Source: Dehalococcoidia bacterium (GTDB lineage: Bacteria; Chloroflexota; Dehalococcoidia; Lucifugimonadales; UBA1127). Taken from it: 62,327 bases of DNA. The translations under genes were made by a program, and so were the position numbers. Below are positions 12,546-33,761 of the stretch, one piece after another; the first letter of the stretch is position 1; the number at the start of each line of letters is the position of its first letter. The notes under the pieces were generated by a model. The model was not told the origin of the DNA and searched no databases. It saw only the letters and a list, made by a program, of their open reading frames with translations. The stretch is taken from contig JAPYRQ010000003.1 of the NCBI GenBank assembly GCA_029936935.1, forward strand, positions 1-62,327, given 5' to 3'.

Positions 12546-13289
12546 CGCGATAGGGCAGCGCTTGGTGTAGATGTGTCTGTACTAGAGGGTTTCGGCAGTT
12601 GATCCACGATGAAACGATACCCTACGCCCGTCTCTGTACGAATGTACCGAGGGTTGCTTGAATTATCCTTCAGCTTGTGGCGCAACCGGTTCACGAACAC
12701 ACGCAGGTAATCCACTTCCTCGCCGTATTCAATAACCAGACCTGTTGCAACAGCATCTTGTGTGTCATGACCTTGCCCTTATGGGTAACCAACTCTGTCA
12801 GCAAGCTGTACTCAGTGGGCGTCAACTTCACTTCGCTCCCTTCCACCGTGACGAAACGGAGGGCGAAGTTGATCTGAAGGTCTCCGCTCTCGTACGTTGG
12901 CTCAGGGAGCAGGGTCTCGGCCTGGTTGGTGCGACGTAATACCGCCTCTATGCGCGCAACCAGTTCTTCGATCACAATGGCTTCACCAGATAATCGTCTG
13001 CGCCTAATCGCAGAGACTTGACCTTCTCCTGCTCTTCCAGCACGGCGCTGAGCATGATAATGGGCACAGAAGACCACTCACGCACACGACGACATACCTC
13101 AAACCCGTTCATCCCCGGCATAGTCACGTCCAACACCAGAAGGTCAGCCATGGTCTCTTCCATCAACGTTAGCGCATGTAGGCCATCGCTGGCCGTCACT
13201 ACTTCGTATTCCTGCCTGCGGAGGTTCGCGGACACTGACCTCAAGATGCTCTGATCATCGCCCACCAGAAGTATTGTTGCCTTTCTCAT
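12542..13289 (-). pseudogene. KdpE/OmpR-family response regulator with two frameshifts
   Basis: Receiver domain (12972-13289), then a wHTH in a second frame (IEELVARIEAVLRR...LTPTEYSLL), then a third frame EYGEEVDYLRVFVNRLRHKL...TETGVGYRF; apparent 1-nt deletions near 12977 and 12735. Confidence 0.85.
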
Positions 13290-23254: not shown

Positions 23255-23306
23255 CGGGCATTGCTCTCGCGATGTAGAAGGGCTAAGAATGAACGGACTG
23301 TCCAAT

Positions 23307-23345
23307 GGTAGCCAACAGATAGCCTGGGTCCAGGGCGAGCCCTGG
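23307..23345 (+). repeat. REP-like element copy 1
   Basis: ggtagccaacagatagcctgggt-ccagggc-ga-gccctgg. Confidence 0.6.
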
Positions 23346-23347
23346 TC

Positions 23348-23832
23348 ATGAAGGTCTTATCCGTCAACGTCTCCAAACCTGGGGTCGTCGAAATCGACGG
23401 CAAGATGGTATCCACTGGCATCTTCAAACGGTCCGTAGACGGCCCCATCATGTTACGGGCGTTGGATTTCGATGGCGATGGGCAAGCTGACCTGCGGGCG
23501 CACGGGGGGCCACACCGGGCTGTATACGTGTACCCAAGTGAGCACTATGGCTACTGGCCCACGTCATAGGTCTACCGGAGTTCCCCAAGCAGTTCTTGGC
23601 AAGCGGTCGCATTGGCTTCTATCTCCGGGTGGTGGAGGAAGGCGCTGTGAGCGCTGGAGACGCAGTGGAGTTTACCAAGGCTTGCCCTGAAGCCATGAGT
23701 GTCCGTGAAGTCTGCAACCTACTGTACTTTGACCAGAAGAATATGGATGACGCGCGACGTGCCCTCAAAATACCGGCACTCTCTCCCGGCTGGCGGGGCT
23801 CCTTTGAAGCTCGTTTGGCCAAATCCGGTTAA
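23348..23832 (+). pseudogene. MOSC/YiiM-family protein with internal deletion
   Basis: N-terminus (GDGQADLRAHGGPHRAVYVY) stops at 23569; C-terminus (GRIGFYLRVVEEG plus 3-alpha domain) is in another frame; central ENL/PC segment is missing. Confidence 0.8.
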
Positions 23833-23917
23833 CGTGTCTGCTCCCTAGCGGATACGGCAAGTGAGCTAGTGACCTGCCTAATGGCCACCTACAGACCCAC
23901 CAAATATTGTTCATATA

Positions 23918-23984
23918 GGGGCCACATGGCCCCGCACCTCTGGGCCTAATTACCCTGTTGGCTTTGCCATCCCTCATCTAATCT
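23918..23984 (+). promoter_or_regulatory. Putative DevR-like activator boxes and -10 of the ligB/Rieske operon
   Basis: GGGGCCA-CA-TGGCCCC, second site GGGCCTAATTACCC, TTGG, TAATCT; same spacing as 29775-29840. Confidence 0.6.
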
Positions 23985-24074
23985 CCTCATAGGTCGACTC
24001 GTAAGAGCTAACGCCCCAACTGTTGAAGGTGCTATATAGGGCACCTGGAGAGTACTCGACTGAAGGAGAAGGAC

Positions 24075-25058
24075 ATGGCGAAGATTGTTTTAGGGATAGG
24101 GACATCGCACAGCCCACAGCTGAGCGTCCCCGGAGATTTGTGGGACACTTATGCGGAGCGCGACAAGCGTAACCCGGGCCTCTATCGCATTCCTGATGGG
24201 AAGCACGTCACCTATGAGGAGCTCTTGGATGAGCCCCATCCAGGCATTGAAAAGCAACTGACTTCTGAGGTCTTCCAGGCACGGCATGAGGCCAACCAGG
24301 CAGGCATCAGCAAACTGGCAGAAGTGATGGAGAAGGCAAACCCTGACGTGATTGTCATGTTTGGCGATGACCAGTCAGAGGTGTTCTCAGCGGACTTCAT
24401 GCCCGCCATGTGCGTCTTCTGGGGCGACACGGTGCCCTTCTCCCGACGCAGCTTTGGCAACCGCGATGCAGCCATGGAGGCCATTGACGGCTACTACAGC
24501 AGGCCTGAAAAGGAATATCCGGTGCACGCGAAACTCGGCAAGCACATCATCGAGTCTCTGAGCACGGACGATTTTGACATAATGCATGCCCGAACCATTG
24601 GCGAGGGCAAGTCCATCAGCCACGCGTTCGGTTTTGTTTGGAACAGGCTCATGGGCGACAAGATCACCCAGACGGTTCCCATTCACATCAACACGTACTT
24701 CTCGCCCAACCAGCCCACGCCACTCCGTAGCTGGGAGCTGGGTCAATCTGTCCGTAAGGCCGTTGAGTCCTGGGACAATGATTTGAGGGTCGCTGTCCTT
24801 GGTTCCGGTGGCTTCAGCCACTTCGTCGTCGACGAAGAAATCGACCAGAATTGCATCAAGGCTCTGGAGGGCAAGAACACCAAGGCCATCGGAGCGCTTC
24901 CGTTGGAGCGTTTGCAGTCCGGAACGTCAGAAGTCCGCAACTGGTTCGCCGCCGCAGGTGCAGCTGAAGAGCTGGATATGCACATGGTTGACTACGTTCC
25001 CTGCTACCGATCCGTTGCAGGTACCGGCTGCGCCATGGGCTTTGCGTACTGGTCTTAA
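24075..25058 (+). CDS. LigB-family extradiol ring-cleavage dioxygenase (protocatechuate/gallate-type)
   Basis: IGTSHSP, GDDQ, SHAFGF, INTYFSPNQP, SGGFSHF, SEVRNW. Confidence 0.88.
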   Translation: MAKIVLGIGTSHSPQLSVPGDLWDTYAERDKRNPGLYRIPDGKHVTYEELLDEPHPGIEKQLTSEVFQARHEANQAGISKLAEVMEKANPDVIVMFGDDQSEVFSADFMPAMCVFWGDTVPFSRRSFGNRDAAMEAIDGYYSRPEKEYPVHAKLGKHIIESLSTDDFDIMHARTIGEGKSISHAFGFVWNRLMGDKITQTVPIHINTYFSPNQPTPLRSWELGQSVRKAVESWDNDLRVAVLGSGGFSHFVVDEEIDQNCIKALEGKNTKAIGALPLERLQSGTSEVRNWFAAAGAAEELDMHMVDYVPCYRSVAGTGCAMGFAYWS

Positions 25059-25075
25059 ATCAAGTTGTGATTAGT

Positions 25076-25109
25076 GGAGCAGCTACCCTGGAAACGGGGT
25101 AGCTGCTCC
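25076..25109 (+). other. Intra-operon 13-bp stem hairpin without U-tract (possible mRNA stabiliser)
   Basis: ggagcagctaccc / gggtagctgctcc. Confidence 0.55.
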
Positions 25110-25152
25110 TGTGCAGGATTCAAACCAAAACACCTAGGGGAAGGAAGAAGAA

Positions 25153-26466
25153 ATGCTGACACAAACTGACAATGAATTACTAACCAAGACAGGACCCGGA
25201 ACTCCCATGGGGGAAGTGTTCCGGCGGTTTTGGCAGCCCGCACTCCTATCATCGGAGTTGCCCGCGCCTGACTGCGATCCCATTCGCCTTCGATTGCTTG
25301 GCGAGAACCTTGTGGCCTATCGCGACACCAACGGAGACGTTGGCGTGATGGACTTCTACTGCCCGCATCGCCGCGCGGGTATGTTCTTCGGTCGAAACGA
25401 AGAGTGCGGACTTCGCTGCGTATACCACGGCTGGAAGTTCGACAAGGACGGCAACTGCACGGACATGCCGTCAGAGCCGGCAGAGAGCAATTTCAAGGAC
25501 AAGGTGAAAATCACGGCGTATCCGGCCGAAGAGGCTGGCGACGTCGTCTGGATTTACATGGGGCCTGCTGAGAGCAAGCCTGCTTTGCCCGATTTTGAAT
25601 GGACCAAGGTGCCTTCTGAGAACCGTGTGGTGACTCGCTGGATTCAGCAGTCCAACTGCATGCAGGCTGCGGAAGGCGAGATCGACACGTCTCACGTGTC
25701 CTTCAACCACCGTTGGTTCAACATGAAGAACGCACCGGATTCCGTTAAGTCCCTCCCACGTCGTGAGAACAAAGACGGTAAGCAACTGAACCTCATGGAC
25801 GGCGCGCCACACCTGACCGTGAATGAGACCAACTACGGTTTCACCTATGGCTCACGTCGCGCAGTTGAGGATGAGGGGTACTACTGGCGCATAACCCAGT
25901 TCCTTCTGCCCATGTACAGCCTGATTCCCAGCCCTGACTGGCCCCGTGGCGGCCGAGGTTGGGTGCCGATTGATGATGAGAATATCTCCGTCATTCAGTA
26001 CTCCTACAATGCCGAACGACCTTTCACCAAGCTAGAGCGTGAGCACAGGAGATCCAGCCCCGAAGGACTGAAGTATGGCAAGTTCACCCTTGATGACGGC
26101 TACATCATTGACACCTTCATTCCGGCCCGACTGCCGGAGAACGACTACCTCATTGACCGCGAAATGCAGCGTAATGACAACTACACAGGCATCGCTAGCG
26201 GACGCGAGCAGGATATGGCTATGACGGATACCATGGGCGCCGTCGCCGACCGCACCAAGGAGCACCTTGGCACAAGCGACACCGCGATCATCGCAGCCCG
26301 CAGAATTCTTCTTAAGCTGGCTCGAGACCTCCAGGAAGGCACGGAGCCATACGCACCACAGCACCCGGAAGTCTTTGCGGTGCGCGCCATCGACGTAGTC
26401 GACCATGAGGGCGACTTCGACAAGCTCATGGTAGAGCACTCAGCACTCTCGAAGACTACGTTTTAG
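25153..26466 (+). CDS. Rieske aromatic oxygenase alpha subunit (phthalate 4,5-dioxygenase/LigX-like)
   Basis: CPHRR...CVYHGW; IDTSHVSFNH; EQDMAM. Confidence 0.93.
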   Translation: MLTQTDNELLTKTGPGTPMGEVFRRFWQPALLSSELPAPDCDPIRLRLLGENLVAYRDTNGDVGVMDFYCPHRRAGMFFGRNEECGLRCVYHGWKFDKDGNCTDMPSEPAESNFKDKVKITAYPAEEAGDVVWIYMGPAESKPALPDFEWTKVPSENRVVTRWIQQSNCMQAAEGEIDTSHVSFNHRWFNMKNAPDSVKSLPRRENKDGKQLNLMDGAPHLTVNETNYGFTYGSRRAVEDEGYYWRITQFLLPMYSLIPSPDWPRGGRGWVPIDDENISVIQYSYNAERPFTKLEREHRRSSPEGLKYGKFTLDDGYIIDTFIPARLPENDYLIDREMQRNDNYTGIASGREQDMAMTDTMGAVADRTKEHLGTSDTAIIAARRILLKLARDLQEGTEPYAPQHPEVFAVRAIDVVDHEGDFDKLMVEHSALSKTTF

Positions 26467-26540
26467 GTTCGACAAACTTCGAAGCCAATAATGCCCTACC
26501 CAAAGAGGTACGGCGGGAGAACAAGGAAAGAAGGGAAAAC

Positions 26541-27827
26541 ATGCTGACACAAGCAGACAACGAGATAGTCACGCGAACCGGTCCCGGCACGCCCATGGGT
26601 GAGCTGTTCCGGCGGTTCTGGCAACCAGTGTTGCTATCGTCAGACCTGCCTGATAACGATGGTGACCCACAGCGAATAAAGGTGTTGGGTGAGAACCTTG
26701 TCGCCTATCGCGACACCAACGGCGACGTTGGCGTGATGAACTTCTACTGCCCGCATCGCCGCGCGGGTATGTTCTTCGGTCGAAACGAAGAGTGCGGACT
26801 CCGCTGTGTGTACCACGGCTGGAAGTTTGATAAGGACGGCAACTGCACGGATATGCCGTCAGAGCCCGCCGAGAGCAACTTCAAGGGCAAGGTGAAAATC
26901 ACCGCATATCCAGCCAAAGAGGCTGGCACGGTGGTCTGGATCTACATGGGGCCCAAGGAGCTTCAGCCGGAGTTACCGCAGTTTGAGTGGTGCACGGTTC
27001 CCGAGGGTCACGTGGTAGTGACTCGCTGGCTCCAGCAGTCCAACTACCTTCAGGCCATGGAAGGCGAGATTGATACGTCCCACGTCTCCTTCAACCATCG
27101 CTGGTTTGACCTGGACCCCGCACCTGCCACCATTGCCATTCTCAACAGGATGGCAGGGGACGGTTCCCCTCGCCTCACGGTGCGGGAGAACGATTCAGGC
27201 TTCATCTACGGTTCACGCCGGGACTATGACAACCAGTACTACTGGCGCTGCACCCAGTTGATGGTGCCCATGTACAGCCTTATCCCTGGCAACCAGTGGC
27301 CCCGTGGCGGACGCGGGTGGGTTCCTGTGGACGACGAGACCAACATGGTCTTCCAGTACGCCTCTAACCCGGACCGACCTCTCACAGAGGAAGAGATACA
27401 CCTGCGCAAGACCCAGAGCCCGCAGAATCTTCACAAGGTGAAGCATACGTTGTCTGACGGCTACGTCATCGATACCTGGATCCCTGAACGGACACCGCAG
27501 AACGACTACAACATCGATCGCGAGATGCAGCGCACGACGAACTACGTTGGCATCCCAAGCACTCGTGAACAGGACATGGCTATGACGGACAGCATGGGCG
27601 CCATTGCCGACCGCACCAAGGAGCACCTGGGCACCAGTGATACGGCCATCATTGCCGGCCGTCAGTTGTTGCTCAAGCTGGCTCGTGACCTTCAAGAAGG
27701 CCAGGAGCCTTACGCGGCACAGCACCCGGAGGTCTTTGCCGTCAGAGCCATCAACATTGTGGACCCGGAGCCTGACTTCGATAACCTTCTTAAGAAGCAC
27801 GGAGATATGGGCAAGGTCAACGCATAA
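26541..27827 (+). CDS. Rieske aromatic oxygenase alpha subunit (close paralog of the previous gene)
   Basis: CPHRR...CVYHGW; IDTSHVSFNH; EQDMAM. Confidence 0.93.
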   Translation: MLTQADNEIVTRTGPGTPMGELFRRFWQPVLLSSDLPDNDGDPQRIKVLGENLVAYRDTNGDVGVMNFYCPHRRAGMFFGRNEECGLRCVYHGWKFDKDGNCTDMPSEPAESNFKGKVKITAYPAKEAGTVVWIYMGPKELQPELPQFEWCTVPEGHVVVTRWLQQSNYLQAMEGEIDTSHVSFNHRWFDLDPAPATIAILNRMAGDGSPRLTVRENDSGFIYGSRRDYDNQYYWRCTQLMVPMYSLIPGNQWPRGGRGWVPVDDETNMVFQYASNPDRPLTEEEIHLRKTQSPQNLHKVKHTLSDGYVIDTWIPERTPQNDYNIDREMQRTTNYVGIPSTREQDMAMTDSMGAIADRTKEHLGTSDTAIIAGRQLLLKLARDLQEGQEPYAAQHPEVFAVRAINIVDPEPDFDNLLKKHGDMGKVNA

Positions 27828-27883
27828 ACCGTATTTGGATCAAGTTTCCCAGGGGAGGGAAAACTTAACCAAAGGAGAGAACA

Positions 27884-29191
27884 ATGCTGACACCAGAAGA
27901 GAATGATCTGATTTGTAGGACTGATAAGGGCACCCCCATGGGAGAGGTCATGCGCCGATACTGGCAGCCTTTCCTGATCTCTGATGAGCTTCCAGATCCG
28001 GACTGTGACGCCATACGTGTTCGGTTGTTGGGCGAGCAGCTTGTCGCGTTCCGTGACACCAATGGGGTCGTAGGCCTCGTCGCTGACGCTTGCCCACATC
28101 GGGGCGCGTCAATGTTCTTCGGCATCAACCAGGAATGTGGCCTGATGTGTATCTACCACGGATGGAAGTTTGATGTGAACGGTGAATGCACAGACATGCC
28201 TTCAGACCTGCCCGGAAGCGGTTTCAAGGACAAGGTAAGAATTGAGGCCTATCCCTGCATTGAGTCGGCAGGCGTCATCTGGACCTACATGGGGCCCAAA
28301 GAGAAGGAGCCCCCGCACCCCAACTTCATCTTCAACAACCTCCCCCAAGAGAACGTGCATGCATTCCGTGTCCCCATCTACTGCAACTGGTTGCAGAGCA
28401 TGGAAGGGAACATTGACTCCACCCACCTGGGCACGCTCCACGTGGACTACCAGGATATGCACCCGGTGGACCTGGAGTATGACAAGCCGGACACTTACCC
28501 TTCCGGGGCATTTGTCCGATACAACCTAGCCAAGTACCGTTACGCCCGCATCGATGTGCAGGATACCTCCTATGGGTATCGACTCATCGCGTCACGGCCA
28601 ACGGACAACGGCAACCAGCACGTCCGCACTAACTGCCACGTGCTGCCCTACAGCACCTTCATTGCATCCCCGGGCAAGGGTGGCTCCGTTTTGATTCACC
28701 CGCCCACGGACGATGAGAACTGCTACCGCATCGGCATCCAGTTCCGGACGGACAGGCCAATCACCGGACAGGAGCGCCGAACCATCACCATGGCTGGGAC
28801 ATACATGGAGAGTGATGGCAAGACTCGCAAGAACCGTGAAGAGAATGACTTCAACGTGGACCGCTGGGCACAGAAGAACACCATCCTGTCCGGCATCTGG
28901 CCTTTCGCAGACCAGGACTACGCCATCATTGAGACGATGGGCAAGATCTTTGACCGGACCAAAGAGCACCTCTATCAGGGTGACCAGGCCATCATTAGGA
29001 ACAGGCAACAACTGTTGAAGATGGCCATGGACATCCAGGAGGGCATAGACCCGCCAGGAACGGGGAACAACAACGACATTCCTCACCACCTGATCCACTC
29101 CGTGGAGAAGATCATTGGGCCTGACGACGATCCGTGGTTCTTGGAAGCGGACGCAGGAGAAACGACTGAAAAGGGTCAACGTACCCGCTAG
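27884..29191 (+). CDS. Rieske aromatic oxygenase alpha subunit
   Basis: CPHRG...CIYHGW; IDSTHLGTLH; DQDYAI. Confidence 0.93.
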   Translation: MLTPEENDLICRTDKGTPMGEVMRRYWQPFLISDELPDPDCDAIRVRLLGEQLVAFRDTNGVVGLVADACPHRGASMFFGINQECGLMCIYHGWKFDVNGECTDMPSDLPGSGFKDKVRIEAYPCIESAGVIWTYMGPKEKEPPHPNFIFNNLPQENVHAFRVPIYCNWLQSMEGNIDSTHLGTLHVDYQDMHPVDLEYDKPDTYPSGAFVRYNLAKYRYARIDVQDTSYGYRLIASRPTDNGNQHVRTNCHVLPYSTFIASPGKGGSVLIHPPTDDENCYRIGIQFRTDRPITGQERRTITMAGTYMESDGKTRKNREENDFNVDRWAQKNTILSGIWPFADQDYAIIETMGKIFDRTKEHLYQGDQAIIRNRQQLLKMAMDIQEGIDPPGTGNNNDIPHHLIHSVEKIIGPDDDPWFLEADAGETTEKGQRTR

Positions 29192-29192
29192 T

Positions 29193-29242
29193 AAAGAATC
29201 CAAGGGTGCCCTGGCCTGGGCCAGGGCACCCTTGGATTCTTT
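29193..29242 (+). terminator. 24-bp perfect inverted repeat terminating the Rieske operon
   Basis: aaagaatccaagggtgccctggcc-tg-ggccagggcacccttggattcttt. Confidence 0.8.
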
Positions 29243-29289
29243 GGGGGGGTTGAAAGATTGCCCGTGTATCGGGTGCTGGGAGCAACACC

Positions 29290-29751
29290 ATGGCAGTACA
29301 GGCCTTTGCTCAAGAGCAACATATGAAGATTAGTGAGTATCTGAGGGCCGAGCACAAGACCATTAGTGAGGATGTCTGGCGTCTTGAACAACAACTTGAG
29401 ATTGGCAGCCTCTCCATTACTGATGTGAAACTTACAGTCCGCACCATTGCCGCCGCATTGGAAAACCACGCCAAGCTGGAAGAGAAGGTTCTGTTCCCTG
29501 CGTTGGAGCATGCCCTGGGCCGTGATGATGGCCCGTTGGCCGTCATGGAAGCCGAGCACAGTCGAATCGCCGCACTGTTCAGTCGTATCGATGGCGCTCG
29601 TGATGAGGACAACGTGCCCATGCTTACTAAAGAACTCACAGGGATGCTACTGAACCATTTTTCCAAGGAAGAAAGTGACCTGTTCCCGAAGGCAGACGAG
29701 CTTCTAGGCACGGTGGAGATTGATGAGTCGGGTTCAGTTCAGCTTGTGTAG
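29290..29751 (+). CDS. Hemerythrin (HHE) domain protein
   Basis: AEH...HAKLEEKVLFP...MEAEH...HFSKEESDLFP. Confidence 0.88.
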   Translation: MAVQAFAQEQHMKISEYLRAEHKTISEDVWRLEQQLEIGSLSITDVKLTVRTIAAALENHAKLEEKVLFPALEHALGRDDGPLAVMEAEHSRIAALFSRIDGARDEDNVPMLTKELTGMLLNHFSKEESDLFPKADELLGTVEIDESGSVQLV

Positions 29752-29774
29752 TGAGAGGTTACCTAGCAAGGAAG

Positions 29775-29840
29775 GGGCCATTTGGCCCTTCAGGTGTACA
29801 CCGTTTTACCCTATTGGACCCATAGTACAAACCCTAGAAT
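29775..29840 (+). promoter_or_regulatory. Putative DevR-like boxes and -10 of the candidate sRNA
   Basis: GGGCCA-TT-TGGCCC, n18, TACCCTATTGG, TAGAAT. Confidence 0.6.
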
Positions 29841-29846
29841 GTGAAT

Positions 29847-29966
29847 TGTTGAACGAACGGTTCCGGAGAGACTCTTAAGAAGAACATTAACCACCCTCGC
29901 GTAGAGAAGGCCCTCCCCTGGGTTGCGGGTCTGTGATGCTTCTGCATTGCAGGCCCGTACTTTTTG
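29847..29966 (+). ncRNA. Candidate small RNA (about 120 nt)
   Basis: Own promoter, no ORF, CCCTCCCCT tract at 29911-19, + strand terminator 29925-29965. Confidence 0.45.
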
Positions 29967-29968
29967 TC

Positions 29969-30610
29969 CTACACGTCGTTGGGGCCGTAGTGTCGAACAA
30001 AGTAGGCTGCGGCTTCGGCTCTCCGGCTGAGGTTAAGCTTCACCAGAATGCCGCTGACATAGTTCTTGACTGTCTTCTCGCTGAGGAAGAGCGTACTAGC
30101 GATCTGCTTGTTGGTCATTCCGTCTGCAATGAGCTTCAATACCTTGATCTCCTGTTCACTGGGGGCATTGCTGGGGATGGATTTCTGGTCACTGATGGTG
30201 CGAATCCTGTCCATCACACCCTGGGTGACAGCGGGATCCAACAGCGATTCTCCACGGCCTACCCTTCGGATAGCATCGACTAGATCGTTACTGCGAGCCT
30301 GCTTCAACAAGTAGCCGCTTGCTCCAGCCATGATTGAGCCCATGACCGCGCTATCGTCGGGGAACGCCGTCAGCATGATTACTTTGGTGTCAGGGTTTTC
30401 ATCCCGGATCGCCCTGCACGCCTCGACTCCACTGCCGTCTGCAAGCCGCACATCCATGATGACGACATCCGGATGGTGGGCCTTGGCTGCGTCAACGCTC
30501 TCTTGAACGGTGCCGGCCTCTGCTACAACCTCAATGTCACCGAGATGCTGAAGCAAAGTGCGTAGGCCTTCCCGTACAACTTCATGGTCGTCTGCAATTA
30601 GGACGCGCAT
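29969..30610 (-). CDS. NarL/DevR(DosR)-like response regulator
   Basis: ADDHEVVREG, MDVRLADGSGVEACR, LuxR HTH GMTNKQIA...EKTVKNYVS. Confidence 0.93.
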   Translation of the reverse strand: MRVLIADDHEVVREGLRTLLQHLGDIEVVAEAGTVQESVDAAKAHHPDVVIMDVRLADGSGVEACRAIRDENPDTKVIMLTAFPDDSAVMGSIMAGASGYLLKQARSNDLVDAIRRVGRGESLLDPAVTQGVMDRIRTISDQKSIPSNAPSEQEIKVLKLIADGMTNKQIASTLFLSEKTVKNYVSGILVKLNLSRRAEAAAYFVRHYGPNDV

Positions 30611-30619
30611 GGTTTCCTC

Positions 30620-32002
30620 CTAGCCCTGAGCCGTCGCCTCTGTTATTGGAATGTTCACTGATATCGATGTTCCCGTGCCCAATGCGCTTTCCACTTCCAG
30701 CCATCCGCCTACGCGTTGGACACGAATATCCATGTTTCTGAGCCCTTGCCGTTCTTCGCTTCTCGGCTGGAGCGGGTCAAACCCCTTGCCATCGTCCTTG
30801 ACCGTAAGTTTGAGGAGATCGTTGATGTTGCTGCCTTCCACACTGACGTTCTGTGCTTGGGCATGTTTCAGGATGTTGGTCATGGCCTCCCGCATCACCT
30901 GGAGCAGCTCCATCCGATGTGCCGAAGAGAGTGGTTCATCCAGGTTTTCGGTAATCGCCAAGTTCACGTTCAGCAGGGCATTCAGCTGAAGTTCTGTGAG
31001 AAGATCCTCAATGCCCTGATTCAACCGCTTCCCATAGTATACCTGAGGATTCAAGCCAAGGATGTTGTTTCTAAGGTCTCGGATGACCTCATCCAGTTTG
31101 TCCACAGAATACGATAGTTGGTCTGCAACCTGATGGGGGATGTCGGTTGTTGTTCTGACCACGTTTTCTAGACGCAATCCCAGGGCGTAGAGAGACTGGA
31201 TCACGCTGTCATGAAGGTCTCTGGCGATGCGTTCACGCTCCTCCAACATCGCTAGTGTCTGTACCTGTCGGTAGAGTCGTGCGTTCTCGATGGCCACAGC
31301 GGCCTGACGTGCGAACAGCACCATGATCTCCTCGTCCTCCGGAGAGAACTCTGGTTCAGACGCTTCATTGGTGAGGTAGAGCTGGCCGATCGTCCTGCCC
31401 TTTGAGACGACAGGAACACCCAGAAACCGCTCCATGGGAGGGTGTCCTTCGGGAAAACCAACGGAGCGTGAGTGTTCGCCGATACTCGGAACCCGTAGGA
31501 GATTGCCTGTCTGCATCGGTACGGCTAGCAACCCACGTTTCATGGAGGGAGGATGGCCAAGTCGCGCGCGCTCTTCTGTGGTGATGCCGGAGGTCAGGAA
31601 CGCCTCTACCTGGCCGTTCTCGTCCAACACTGCCAGTGCACTGTATCTGGCAGTGGCGACCTCCCTCGCCAGGTCGATGACCTGTTGGAACACCGCTTCA
31701 GAGGAGAGCTCAGAGGTCATTGCAAACGAGGCATCGAATAGCGCGGCAAACTGTGTGTTTCTTCGCTCCGCTCCAACATGGAGGTCAACCAACTCTCGCG
31801 TTTCGCTCTGTGATCTATTCATAACTTCAAACATACCCAGACTGAAGAGCAGAAGTGCCCCACCAACGCTGCCCCCAGCGATGCCATGGGTTACTCCAGC
31901 TGGAAGCCCATCGTCAAAAAAGAGGTAGCGCAGCAACTCCAACGCCCCTGCAAAGAGCGTGGTGAGGGTAAACCCTGCCCAAACAATACGGTTATTACGC
32001 AT
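30620..32002 (-). CDS. GAF-domain sensor histidine kinase, DevS(DosS)-like
   Basis: Two TM, GAF with SVGFPEGHPPMERFLGVP, HisKA_3 ERERIARDLHDSVIQ, HATPase. Confidence 0.92.
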   Translation of the reverse strand: MRNNRIVWAGFTLTTLFAGALELLRYLFFDDGLPAGVTHGIAGGSVGGALLLFSLGMFEVMNRSQSETRELVDLHVGAERRNTQFAALFDASFAMTSELSSEAVFQQVIDLAREVATARYSALAVLDENGQVEAFLTSGITTEERARLGHPPSMKRGLLAVPMQTGNLLRVPSIGEHSRSVGFPEGHPPMERFLGVPVVSKGRTIGQLYLTNEASEPEFSPEDEEIMVLFARQAAVAIENARLYRQVQTLAMLEERERIARDLHDSVIQSLYALGLRLENVVRTTTDIPHQVADQLSYSVDKLDEVIRDLRNNILGLNPQVYYGKRLNQGIEDLLTELQLNALLNVNLAITENLDEPLSSAHRMELLQVMREAMTNILKHAQAQNVSVEGSNINDLLKLTVKDDGKGFDPLQPRSEERQGLRNMDIRVQRVGGWLEVESALGTGTSISVNIPITEATAQG

Positions 32003-32192
32003 GATAGTAGTGTGCGCATGCTAGCATATTTGTACGTGGGAAGGTTCATTTCACTGGCATACGTTGACCGTTTGTGTTATTGTTGCTGCGTGGTGGTCCG
32101 ATCCCAATGAAGATGTGCGCTATGAAATCAAACGTACCTCAATACATCGGAGACCGGTCCCGTGGTTATTCTTTTAGGAAAGGAGGTCACCG

Positions 32193-32492
32193 ATGGCTTT
32201 TGAGGATAAGACACTTACTTGTGTAGAGTGTGGAGCAGATTTCACATTCGAAGCAGGCGAGCAAGAGTATTTCGCGCAGAAGGGATTCACTAACGAACCC
32301 CGCCGCTGCCCCACCTGCCGCTCGGCTCGACGTGCTGCCAGTGGTGGTGGTTACGATCGCGGCCCGCGACAGATGTATCCCGCGGTTTGCGCCCAGTGCG
32401 GTCAGGACACCCAAGTCCCGTTCCTGCCGCGCGGCGACCGTCCTGTCTACTGTAGCGATTGCTTCAGTCAGCAGGCCGGCGGACGACGGTAA
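32193..32492 (+). CDS. Zinc-ribbon / CxxC-x17-CxxC domain protein
   Basis: CVEC...CPTC...CAQC-x17-CSDC; AGGAGG RBS. Confidence 0.92.
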   Translation: MAFEDKTLTCVECGADFTFEAGEQEYFAQKGFTNEPRRCPTCRSARRAASGGGYDRGPRQMYPAVCAQCGQDTQVPFLPRGDRPVYCSDCFSQQAGGRR

Positions 32493-32517
32493 GGTAAACA
32501 TCTAACCGCGCCAAAAG

Positions 32518-32556
32518 AAAAAGAGGCGACTGCCTATAAAGCAGTCGCCTCTTTTT
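32518..32556. terminator. Bidirectional intrinsic terminator
   Basis: aaaaagaggcgactgc / gcagtcgcctcttttt between convergent genes. Confidence 0.85.
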
Positions 32557-32576
32557 GTTGTTCTCTTTAGAACCCT

Positions 32577-33761
32577 TTAAGAGACAGGAACTGTCTTGAC
32601 CTCATGGGCTTGGAGTGCCGGGAGGACGTCCTTACCAAACCTCCGAAGCTGCTCCATGAACATATCACCTGGCATCGCCCCTCTGTTGAAGCTAATGAGC
32701 AACGTATTCGCGCCCACCTCGTCAGCCGTTGCTATGAGCCTGTCCCTGACTTCGCTTGCCGGTCCCCATGCCAGATCCTCGCTACGTTCCACGTCTTCAA
32801 TGGTCATGTTCCTGTAGCTCTCTCGGTTGCCTGCCATGAACTTTCGGTTCTCAGGTTGTACGTAGTCGTAGGCGTCTGAGTTGATGTAGCCCTGCGCTTG
32901 CTGTAAAGACGCCTCCGTGATGTTGCCGTGGCTGAATAACGTCTGACTGAAGTACAGCGAGTACGGGCCGGCCTGCTTCACGGCTTCGGCTCTGCTATCA
33001 GCAACAAAGGCATTGACGGGAAGAATCAGATGATCGGGCGTAATCTGATGCCCGTTCTCACCGAGGCATTTGGCGTAGTAGTTCACAATATCGTGTCGTA
33101 CGCCCATGTGTGGCACTAGCCCCGGTGTTATGGGGAAATTCTCCCTACCCGCGAACTGGATGGTCTCTTTGCTACCGGTTACCGGCAACCATACGGGCGG
33201 TCGAGGCTGCTGGTACGGCCGAGGCCATATTGCAACATCTTTGTATGTCCAGAAATTGCCTTCGTAAGAGAAGACCTCCTCTGTCCATGCCCTTTTAATG
33301 ATTTCCCAAGACTCCTCAAAGCGTGCTCGAGAGTCCTTCATCGACACCTGGAAAACGTTGTGCTCACGCGGAATGCCTCGAGCGAAACCGGAGATGAGCC
33401 GCCCCTCTGAAAGGCAGTCCACCATCGACAGCTCTTCTGCGAGTCGCAGCGGGTCATGGATGGGGAGCAGGTTGCCATACACCAGCAGCTTCAGGTTCTT
33501 GGTGCGCTGTGCCGCCGCCGCCACCATGATGTTGGGAGAATTCATCAGTCCATAGGGCGATGTGTGGTGCTCGTTAAAGCCGATGCCGTCATAACCCAAC
33601 TCGTCCATCAACGTCCACGCCTGCAGGTGCTCTTCGTATGTCTGCGCGGCTACCGTGGGGTCGAAGTGCTTCTTGGGTAGCGGCCACGGCAATTCGGTAC
33701 CCTCTCGCAAGTGGCCGAGGTGTTCTCCGTACGGAAGCAGATCAAAGGCAAAGACCTTCAT
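32577..33761 (-). CDS. LLM-class flavin-dependent oxidoreductase (luciferase-like)
   Basis: GFNEHH, PLRLAEELSMVD, GRLISGFARG, PRPYQQPRPP. Confidence 0.92.
   Translation of the reverse strand: MKVFAFDLLPYGEHLGHLREGTELPWPLPKKHFDPTVAAQTYEEHLQAWTLMDELGYDGIGFNEHHTSPYGLMNSPNIMVAAAAQRTKNLKLLVYGNLLPIHDPLRLAEELSMVDCLSEGRLISGFARGIPREHNVFQVSMKDSRARFEESWEIIKRAWTEEVFSYEGNFWTYKDVAIWPRPYQQPRPPVWLPVTGSKETIQFAGRENFPITPGLVPHMGVRHDIVNYYAKCLGENGHQITPDHLILPVNAFVADSRAEAVKQAGPYSLYFSQTLFSHGNITEASLQQAQGYINSDAYDYVQPENRKFMAGNRESYRNMTIEDVERSEDLAWGPASEVRDRLIATADEVGANTLLISFNRGAMPGDMFMEQLRRFGKDVLPALQAHEVKTVPVS

Follow-up and report, generated by a model that had tools for sequence, protein, structure and literature searches.

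Which factor acts at two look-alike promoters of a marine bacterium, and does it place enzymes that break down aromatic rings under the control of oxygen (O2)? This question is raised by a 62,327-nt stretch of DNA, hereafter the window, which is the forward strand of contig JAPYRQ010000003.1 (positions 1 to 62,327) in the Dehalococcoidia bacterium assembly GCA_029936935.1. One promoter precedes ligB, for a LigB-type ring-cleavage dioxygenase, and three Rieske oxygenase genes; the other precedes a putative non-coding unit that lies beside genes for a hemerythrin, a DevR-like response regulator and a GAF-domain sensor kinase. A preliminary description of this DNA had joined these parts into an oxygen-sensing regulon. 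Our best explanation, which we consider fairly probable, is that a module of approximately 8.3 kb would comprise both a two-component system of the DevRS/OsdKR type and two promoters that it targets, with predicted O2 control of the oxygenases.

When re-read from the sequence, the coordinates and layout previously given for both sets of promoter motifs proved exact. At each site the palindrome GGGCCAnnTGGCCC is followed, 18 nt on, by the motif TACCCTRTTGG and then, with equal offset, by a -10 hexamer. The palindrome occupies positions 23919-23932 (GGGCCACATGGCCC) and 29775-29788 (GGGCCATTTGGCCC), the second motif positions 23951-23961 (TACCCTGTTGG) and 29807-29817 (TACCCTATTGG), and the -10 elements TAATCT (23979-23984) and TAGAAT (29835-29840) each begin 21 nt past the start of TTGG. 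The predicted core of promoter 1 (23956-23984, plus strand) has a poor -35, TGTTGG, a 17-nt spacer and the -10 TAATCT, with a start expected near 23991. Predicted promoter 2 (29798-29840, plus strand) has the same geometry, and consists of a degenerate secondary box, ACACCGTTTTACCC, the -35 TATTGG and the -10 TAGAAT. The stretches between the motifs are unrelated at the two sites, with only 7/18 and 3/17 positions identical by hand count, which argues that the motifs were selectively conserved and that no recent duplication took place.

The window corresponds to contig C97 of a genome, G000, of 2.05 Mb in 105 contigs, which is 94.55% complete and has 56.6% G+C. Its gene content and habitat labels, with the sizes of genomes of the same class, suggest that it may be a SAR202-like member of the Dehalococcoidia. 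The genome-wide motif scan proposed in the preliminary description was run on it, and found the exact palindrome to be enriched. Five copies are present, against a mean of 0.36 per genome for palindromes of the same composition and 6-2-6 form (n = 240), and all five are intergenic, a call that is weakened by the crude map of open reading frames (ORFs; 88% coding) on which it rests. At least three intergenic copies were found for only two of the 240 palindromes, namely, this box and the core of an unrelated repeat. The second motif, TACCCTRTTGG, has three copies in the genome, and only the two in the window adjoin the palindrome. Scoring with a position weight matrix (PWM) placed 11 intergenic sites among the 13 top scores of the genome, yet 8 of those 11 had trained the matrix.

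The regulator gene (29969-30610, minus strand) encodes a DevR/OsdR-like response regulator, with a receiver domain and a GerE helix-turn-helix domain according to Pfam. The devR-like label that it had been given is borne out, first, by structure, as DevR (3C3W, E 2.4e-51) ranks first among its 241 matches to solved structures; and second, by its contact residues, as K179, K182 and N183, within SEKTVKNYVS (residues 177-186), are identical to those of DevR in residue and number. The corresponding Lys179, Lys182 and Asn183 are reported to make the base contacts of DosR (PMC4082495). The receiver domain matches Pfam Response_reg (E 2e-27), and its D53 aligns in HMMER with D54 of DevR, for which Asp54 is the reported phospho-acceptor (PMC3029386).

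The sequence of the palindrome is what such a regulator would be expected to bind. OsdR, the DevR orthologue of Streptomyces coelicolor, is reported to bind AGGGCCGATCGGCCCT in electrophoretic mobility shift assays, with point mutations at the conserved G weakening binding (PMC5069765), and the box described here shows a single difference per half-site from this consensus, at position 6. For DevR itself, the C-terminal domain contacts the half-site G4G5G6A7C8T9 (PMC3177182), of which G4, G5, G6 and C8 are retained here and A7 is replaced by C. The predicted primary boxes, to which no strand is assigned, are GGGGCCACATGGCCCC (box 1, 23918-23933) and GGGGCCATTTGGCCCT (box 2, 29774-29789), with PWM scores of 21.7 and 24.3, respectively, for sites that both belong to the training set of the matrix. 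A Pfam survey of positions 12691-37717, where several ORFs were unrun or had no match, found only one other DNA-binding match among the ORFs run, a 128-aa OmpR-type fragment at 12691-13077. These results support the palindrome as a DevR/OsdR-type box and the predicted site of the adjacent regulator.

A better reading of the second motif takes it as one half of a second, weak box, in the tandem layout typical of DevR. It had been described as a weaker promoter-proximal site, which we retain, and as a conserved unit, TACCCTRTTGG, which we replace, as TTACCC appears to be the proximal half of a second 14-bp box. At promoter 1 this predicted secondary box, GGGCCTAATTACCC (23942-23955, plus strand), has its centre 23 bp from that of the primary box and abuts the -35, and it scores 11.3 with the PWM as a site from outside the training set. 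A related genome, G011, keeps TTACCCT and does not keep TTGG, and its secondary box, AGGCCTTTTTACCC, lies 22 bp from its primary box. Every DevR promoter of Mycobacterium tuberculosis carries at least two tandem boxes, of which the conserved one nucleates cooperative binding to poorly conserved neighbours, and at the tgs1 promoter the box centres lie at -63.5 and -42.5 (PMC3177182). Those of promoter 1 would lie at -65.5 and -42.5, if the start is assumed to be at 23991.

Two other readings of the second motif were tried and rejected, namely, the -35 of an alternative sigma factor and, as a side note only, the site of a NarL-type regulator encoded on contig C20, since TACCCTRWTGG occurs 4 times in the genome, close to the approximately 3.6 copies expected by chance (hand estimate). 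This regulator belongs to a second kinase-regulator pair (L048, C20:27676-31134) whose kinase combines HisKA_3 with a DevS-like GAF domain (GAF 52% identical), and its recognition helix, SENTVKYH, is not of the DevR type. A universal stress protein gene, the only one noticed, lies divergently upstream, and a palindrome about 110 nt upstream of the C20 kinase gene, TACCCTGATGGGTA, shares TACCCTRWTGG with the second motif.

The sensor kinase gene (30620-32002, minus strand) encodes a protein with two hydrophobic stretches in residues 1-65, recognized by eye, and with the Pfam domains GAF (one copy, residues 99-239), HisKA_3 (from residue 255; PF07730, E 3e-13) and HATPase_c (PF02518, E 3e-11). 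The best structure matches of its GAF domain are the GAF-A domains of DevS and DosT (E 1e-25 to 6e-24), including 2Y79 (E 1.2e-25), to which it is about 37% identical over 147 residues by hand count from the alignment. H187 corresponds to His149 of DevS, the proximal haem ligand, and Y209 to the distal Tyr171, whereas Glu87, at the position of Gly85 in DosT, is replaced by A124, and His89 by L126. The DevS numbering used is that of the construct, as confirmed by E87A and E87G mutant chains among the structure matches, and both E87A and E87G DosS are reported to form stable O2 complexes (PMC4082495). We infer from these residues that the GAF domain would carry haem and switch with O2. The haem-GAF kinase of the preliminary description is upheld in its DevS GAF-A likeness and in the haem His and distal Tyr; its overall layout differs from that of DevS, with one GAF domain and two hydrophobic stretches. 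Searching the genome contigs with the kinase returned distant relatives only (best 37% identity), which were not used further.

The genes downstream of promoter 1 are all on the plus strand. The LigB-type extradiol ring-cleavage dioxygenase gene (24075-25058; PF02900, E 3e-18) is followed by three tandem Rieske plus LigXa_C oxygenase genes (25153-26466, 26541-27827 and 27884-29191; PF00355 and PF19301 in each) and by the gene of an HHE-domain hemerythrin (29290-29751; PF01814, E 9e-20). Pfam agrees here with all the gene identities originally proposed, namely, LigB, three Rieske proteins, hemerythrin, regulator and GAF kinase. A weak hairpin (29200-29235) lies between the third Rieske gene and the hemerythrin gene, and the latter is probably in one operon with ligB and the Rieske genes.

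From these elements a mechanism can be proposed. By homology, a membrane-anchored kinase would hold haem in its DevS-GAF-A-like domain and, with the haem free of O2, would phosphorylate the DevR-like regulator. The contact residues and the sequence of the box suggest that a dimer of the regulator would bind the strong palindrome at about -65 and load cooperatively onto the weak second box, centred at about -42 beside the poor -35, so as to recruit RNA polymerase. This would switch on the operon of ligB, the three Rieske genes and probably hemerythrin, and also a terminator-bounded RNA of about 120 nt, transcribed toward the 3' end of the regulator gene. In this way O2-consuming aromatic hydroxylation and ring cleavage would be tied to O2 or to a different ligand of the haem and, by analogy with DevS and DosT, the enzymes and the O2-binding hemerythrin would be raised when O2 is scarce. 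With DevR/OsdR-type boxes in both promoters and a haem-type kinase and regulator adjacent to them, it is probable that these ring-degrading, O2-consuming enzymes are O2-controlled.

A more ambitious version of this mechanism, which as a whole we find rather doubtful, is an O2-scavenging programme. Here the haem-GAF kinase would come on as O2 falls, and the tandem boxes would raise the ring hydroxylases, the ring-cleaving dioxygenase and a hemerythrin that captures O2 or hands it over, so that aromatic oxidation would be kept going in O2-poor deep or vent water. This would be the reverse of the dormancy role of the family, and a small RNA, running from a box-dependent promoter into the 3' end of the regulator operon, would complete the circuit.

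The same box would extend the regulon to two HpaB genes, the only flavin reductase gene, a solute-binding protein and an amidohydrolase/MFS (major facilitator superfamily) pair. Outside the window, the exact palindrome stands ahead of one gene for HpaB (C87:4129), one for a solute-binding protein (C53:12946) and an ORF that has no Pfam family (C86:87), and further sites were found with a relaxed pattern and the weight matrix. One of them lies between a TPP (thiamine pyrophosphate)-enzyme gene and a second HpaB gene (C87:60124), and another between an MFS gene and an amidohydrolase_2 gene (C87:10354), while two boxes 21 bp apart (C96:2242 and 2263), followed by TTGGCA, 17 nt and TACTAT, lie upstream of the flavin reductase gene. 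Weaker candidates, unverified, lie at a LigB paralogue (C26:10518) and a Rieske paralogue (C99:51799). Among approximately 1,939 crude ORFs, the box adjoins two of the four HpaB genes and the single flavin reductase gene. These matches are specific because only 4 HpaB loci and 1 flavin reductase locus exist genome-wide; a Rieske match alone would be unspecific, because the genome has 63 Rieske loci. The regulon of two promoters originally proposed is thus kept for those two and widened to a set that includes HpaB, flavin reductase and the binding protein.

Two observations on this genome may be added. By tblastn (E <= 1e-10, query coverage of at least half), its 2.05 Mb hold 63 Rieske/LigXa-type, 9 LigB, 15 amidohydrolase_2, 10 luciferase-like monooxygenase, 7 TPP-enzyme and 4 HpaB loci. 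At C86:1-120 (L249, a 2.7-kb contig), a 28-codon Rieske-like start (MLTQADNEL...) runs into the palindrome and stops soon after, in a frame that resembles a rearrangement scar, and the 286-aa ORF downstream is the one without a Pfam family.

The module is variable among relatives. Its approximate limits, with no strand assigned, are 23558 and 32063, from promoter 1 to the kinase gene, and its neighbours are a TPP-enzyme gene on one side and a 104-aa Cys-rich ORF on the other. By blastn, and in window coordinates, position 23557 is joined to 32064 (approximately) in the clade of G009, 23511 to 31830 in G010, 24469 to 31866 in G011 and 25718 to 31289 in G003, in fragmented genomes where an assembly artefact is possible. 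Because each of G003, G010 and G011 retains a remnant of the kinase gene, these three appear to descend from carriers through three different deletions, and it is in these three that orthologous boxes persist, at the LigB promoter, HpaB and the binding protein. A search of 20 genomes of the same family yielded no orthologue of the regulator at E <= 1e-40. Box 1 is kept upstream of the LigB orthologue in both G003 and G011, with diverged flanks; for the G011 orthologue, identity over the first 138 residues is 88%. Between G000 and G011, the stretch that begins with the palindrome and ends with TTACCCT is conserved, against diverged sequence in the upstream flank and in the spacer, and G011 also retains the -10 with its flanks, CTAATCTCC.

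More distant regulators are accompanied by the same class of box. In 80 metagenome contigs (532 kb) encoding regulators 49-63% identical to that of the window, 110 copies of GGGnCnnnnGnCCC were counted, compared with 33 of the reversed control, with half-sites of both the GGGCC and the GGGAC type. Gene coordinates were entered for 36 of the 80 contigs, all chosen from loci with at least one box, and there 15 boxes in 13 loci sit 47-201 nt upstream of the regulator gene. The contig with the closest regulator (63% identity) encodes a single-GAF kinase and then the regulator, in the order seen here, and carries two tandem box pairs 21-22 bp apart, one of them just upstream of a multicopper oxidase gene. 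The intact module arrangement itself was found in contigs of all four metagenome runs examined, from four studies; no difference is listed inside either promoter, at a divergence too low to be informative. Runs holding at least a fifth of the sampled words are all labelled hydrothermal vent metagenome.

In the phylum, a regulator homologue (E <= 1e-50) is present in 151 of 401 sampled genomes, a tally that includes the unpublished genome G078, used for this purpose only. The 29 best regulator loci all have a kinase homologue alongside (29/29) and all encode xKTVKNYVS (29/29), and the kinase homologues that cover the GAF domain keep both His and Tyr (28/28) and have Gly at the Glu87 position, like DosT (28/28). 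Boxes upstream of the phylum kinase genes were dropped as candidate autoregulatory sites, as they may lie in N-terminal coding sequence, and a box scan of five order-level regulator loci gave nothing useful.

Several observations weigh against the two-component explanation. First, apart from the crude ORF map already mentioned, the enrichment of the box is confined to strict patterns: the window holds 4 sites with up to two mismatches against 5.03 expected, the genome 13 with up to one mismatch against 17 for the reversed control, the reversed control has 2 exact copies, and the 29 best phylum loci, which are short, 18 boxes against 12 for the control, barely an enrichment. Second, a sigma-70 consensus scan of 23300-32700 called zero promoters, so that the -35 and -10 assignments are drawn from conservation alone; the secondary box of promoter 2 is very weak (PWM <3), so that this promoter shares just the proximal half, TTACCC, with promoter 1; and the spacing of 22-23 bp differs from the 21 bp of the M. 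tuberculosis example. Third, the helix KTVKNYVS is common to all 29 best phylum homologues, and hence the helix alone fails to single out this box. Fourth, the region ahead of the kinase-regulator operon (32003-32600) gave no PWM score of at least 3, although autoregulation is a trait of both DevR and OsdR, the reported OsdR regulon including osdR (PMC5069765); with no box preceding the operon, promoter 2 is the sole box-dependent element beside it.

The remaining points come from the relatives. G003, G010 and G011 have boxes without an intact system, which may be relics or may be bound by another factor. Exact palindromes also occur in non-coding DNA of G002, G006 and G009: each has one directly before a Rieske gene, and G002 and G009 have a further copy. 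None of the three encodes a DevR-type regulator, the best match being 35-40% identical across the full protein, and neither a DevR-type helix nor a kinase remnant was found. These sequences are near-identical and hence represent at most two independent loci, yet they are the main observation that falls outside our preferred explanation. Of the O2 regulon as first drawn, the box class, the DevR-like regulator and the haem-type GAF domain hold at the level of sequence; the regulon is wider than two promoters, the kinase departs from DevS in its layout, and no box lies upstream of the regulator operon.

The rival reading that survives best concerns promoter 2. A transcript of about 120 nt is predicted from it (29847-29966, plus strand), convergent with the regulator gene and ending at an intrinsic terminator, namely, a 16-pair stem (29924-29959) followed by CTTTTTG, 120 nt past the expected start. 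This unit has its terminator region in common with the hemerythrin gene upstream, and it points at the 3' end of the regulator gene. We place just short of an even chance on promoter 2 making no trans-acting small RNA at all, and being instead the leftover promoter of a lost gene or a means of convergent cis-damping of the regulator operon by a (read-through) transcript. A trans-acting RNA is disfavoured by several results: Rfam (E <= 1, 23500-32600) gave two chance-level matches, neither at the unit; blastn-short found no paralogue in the genome, where the unit is single-copy, and blastn no homologue in any relative searched; and a ranking of 1,866 translation-start regions by duplex energy was uninformative, with unrealistically long duplexes and the regulon genes 347th or lower. 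The unit has no ORF with a plausible start. Its orientation toward the 3' end of the regulator gene, at the only box near that operon, would also suit a role in cis. Conversely, the 16-pair terminator with its U tract should make read-through rare, the predicted fold (-43.6 kcal/mol) is more stable than shuffled sequences (z -2.6), and the geometry of promoter 2 equals that of promoter 1 to the base. A precedent for a DosR-regulated small RNA is also reported in M. tuberculosis, DrrS (MTS1338; PMC5360333); the RNA of the window is no more than a prediction, is placed by the 3' end of the regulator operon, and would not be expected to resemble DrrS in sequence or structure. A hint of common ancestry is provided by an 11-nt word, GACTCGTAAGA / GACTCTTAAGA, common to the ligB leader (23995-24005) and the putative RNA (29870-29880) with 10 of 11 bases matching; its distance from the -10 differs between the two, and it is not conserved in G011.

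A second rival keeps the circuit and changes its signal: the haem kinase would report NO, CO, H2S or redox state, each of them plausible in the water of hydrothermal vents, and not O2, and the oxygenase genes would follow that signal. We judge this unlikely. DevS and DosT are reported to respond to NO and CO as well, and whether DosS senses gas or redox state is disputed (PMC4082495); binding of H2S to ferric DosS haem has also been reported (PMC9062744). The hydrothermal vent label shared by the metagenome runs richest in this sequence points the same way. On the other hand, a small residue occupies the channel position (Ala in this kinase, Gly in 28/28 phylum homologues, like Gly85 of DosT), which favours direct O2 binding, and all the flanking targets consume O2.

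A third rival, to which we give an even smaller chance, is that the palindrome is the operator of a different factor, responsive to the substrates of an aromatic catabolism of the hydroxyphenylacetate type, the DevR-like pair being coincidental or controlling something else. HpaB, flavin reductase, LigB, Rieske proteins, amidohydrolase and a binding protein do form a coherent set of catabolic targets, and the missing box upstream of the regulator operon would be accounted for, as would the exact non-coding palindromes of G002, G006 and G009, which have no DevR-type regulator. In these genomes (L074, L028 and L073, respectively) an exact palindrome lies between a -10-like hexamer, TAGGAT, and the ribosome-binding site of the Rieske gene, a position typical of repressors. 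These three genomes, however, are one clade with two loci, near chance over 12 genomes; the ORFs run near the sites include no other complete regulator gene; and relatives with orthologous boxes retain kinase remnants. Moreover, the box is nearly the OsdR consensus and the regulator retains the DevR contact residues, while related regulators elsewhere adjoin boxes of the same class, often in tandem pairs.

Lastly, it is highly improbable that the motifs common to both sites arose by chance or are structural elements, such as terminators or repeats, devoid of regulatory meaning. G+C-rich palindromes do form parts of terminators in relatives (e.g., L014, L019 and L026), and a palindromic repeat family with 48 copies is present in the genome. 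Nevertheless, 6-bp arms cannot be closed by a 2-nt loop, no T tract lies downstream, the exact copies are five and intergenic where 0.36 would be expected, three elements are equally spaced at two sites, and the elements are kept in G011 amid diverged flanks. The repeat family just mentioned resembles REP (repetitive extragenic palindromic) elements: its core, (C/A)AGGGCnnGCCCT(G/T), is mostly intergenic and is embedded in an imperfect inverted repeat of approximately 60-70 nt, with flanks like GGTAACC...TGGGT / ACCCATAT...GGTTACC (e.g., C55:13171, C61:18202, C65:16726 and C21:11547).

How does the proposed DevRS/OsdKR-type system compare with those already described? In actinobacteria, DevR/DosR-type systems are familiar as switches for dormancy and stress. 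FixL/FixJ-type haem O2 sensors, whose kinase is active without O2, switch on high-affinity respiration at low O2 and so follow a like logic, in which the capacity to use scarce O2 is raised, yet they differ in having a PAS haem domain, another regulator subfamily and another DNA site, and their targets are oxidases and nitrogen-fixation genes. DevS/DosT-DevR of M. tuberculosis provides the best structure matches for both proteins, and its haem His149, Tyr171, K179/K182/N183 and phospho-acceptor Asp are all kept; a strong box with a weak neighbour by the -35 is likewise found at tgs1 (PMC3177182). The differences are that DevS is reported to have two GAF domains, A and B (PMC4082495), and the kinase described here one, preceded by two hydrophobic stretches; that the half-site has C in place of A7 and a wider spacing between boxes; and that the gene order, kinase then regulator, is unlike that of DevS/DosT-DevR, as is a regulon of catabolic oxygenases in place of dormancy genes. 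OsdK/OsdR of S. coelicolor (SCO0203/SCO0204) likewise pairs a NarL-type regulator with a GAF kinase, and its 16-nt palindromic site matches the box except at position 6 of each half-site. Many OsdR sites are reported to cluster around the regulator gene, and the regulon described comprises stress, universal stress protein, nitrate-reductase and developmental genes together with osdR (PMC5069765), whereas here the genes beside boxes are aromatic oxygenases and no box precedes the operon. Tandem GAF domains in a soluble kinase, an autoregulatory box at the operon and a dormancy or stress regulon, judged from the genes beside boxes, are therefore habits of the DevRS family not seen at this locus.

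The sensor, the regulator and the box are thus familiar; the output, ring oxygenases and hemerythrin in a marine bacterium, is newly described as far as our literature search reached, and among the literature matches listed no paper dealt with this lineage or with such a kinase-regulator pair outside actinobacteria. If the proposed circuit is correct, it would connect, in a concrete and testable way, the oxygen available in deep or vent water with the degradation of aromatic organic matter there, in an uncultured host with 63 Rieske and 9 LigB loci in 2 Mb, and a defined cis-element that predicts which of the paralogous oxygenases respond to oxygen. As the module is gained or lost as a unit among close relatives, oxygen control of the pathway appears to be an optional trait, and the kinase-regulator pair is common in the phylum (151 of the 401 genomes sampled).

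Minor observations concern the sequences that flank the module. Upstream of promoter 1, a MOSC/YiiM-like gene (23348-23832) is broken into three short ORFs, with Pfam matches in the last only, and G003 (L071, 4476-5153) has in its place a single 226-aa frame with about 150 nt of extra sequence. At the other end, the 104-aa Cys-rich ORF upstream of the kinase gene (32187-32556) has paired CxxC motifs and no Pfam match, and a strong two-way terminator (32518-32556) lies beside it. This 32187-32556 piece shows 79-84% DNA identity even in relatives without the whole module.

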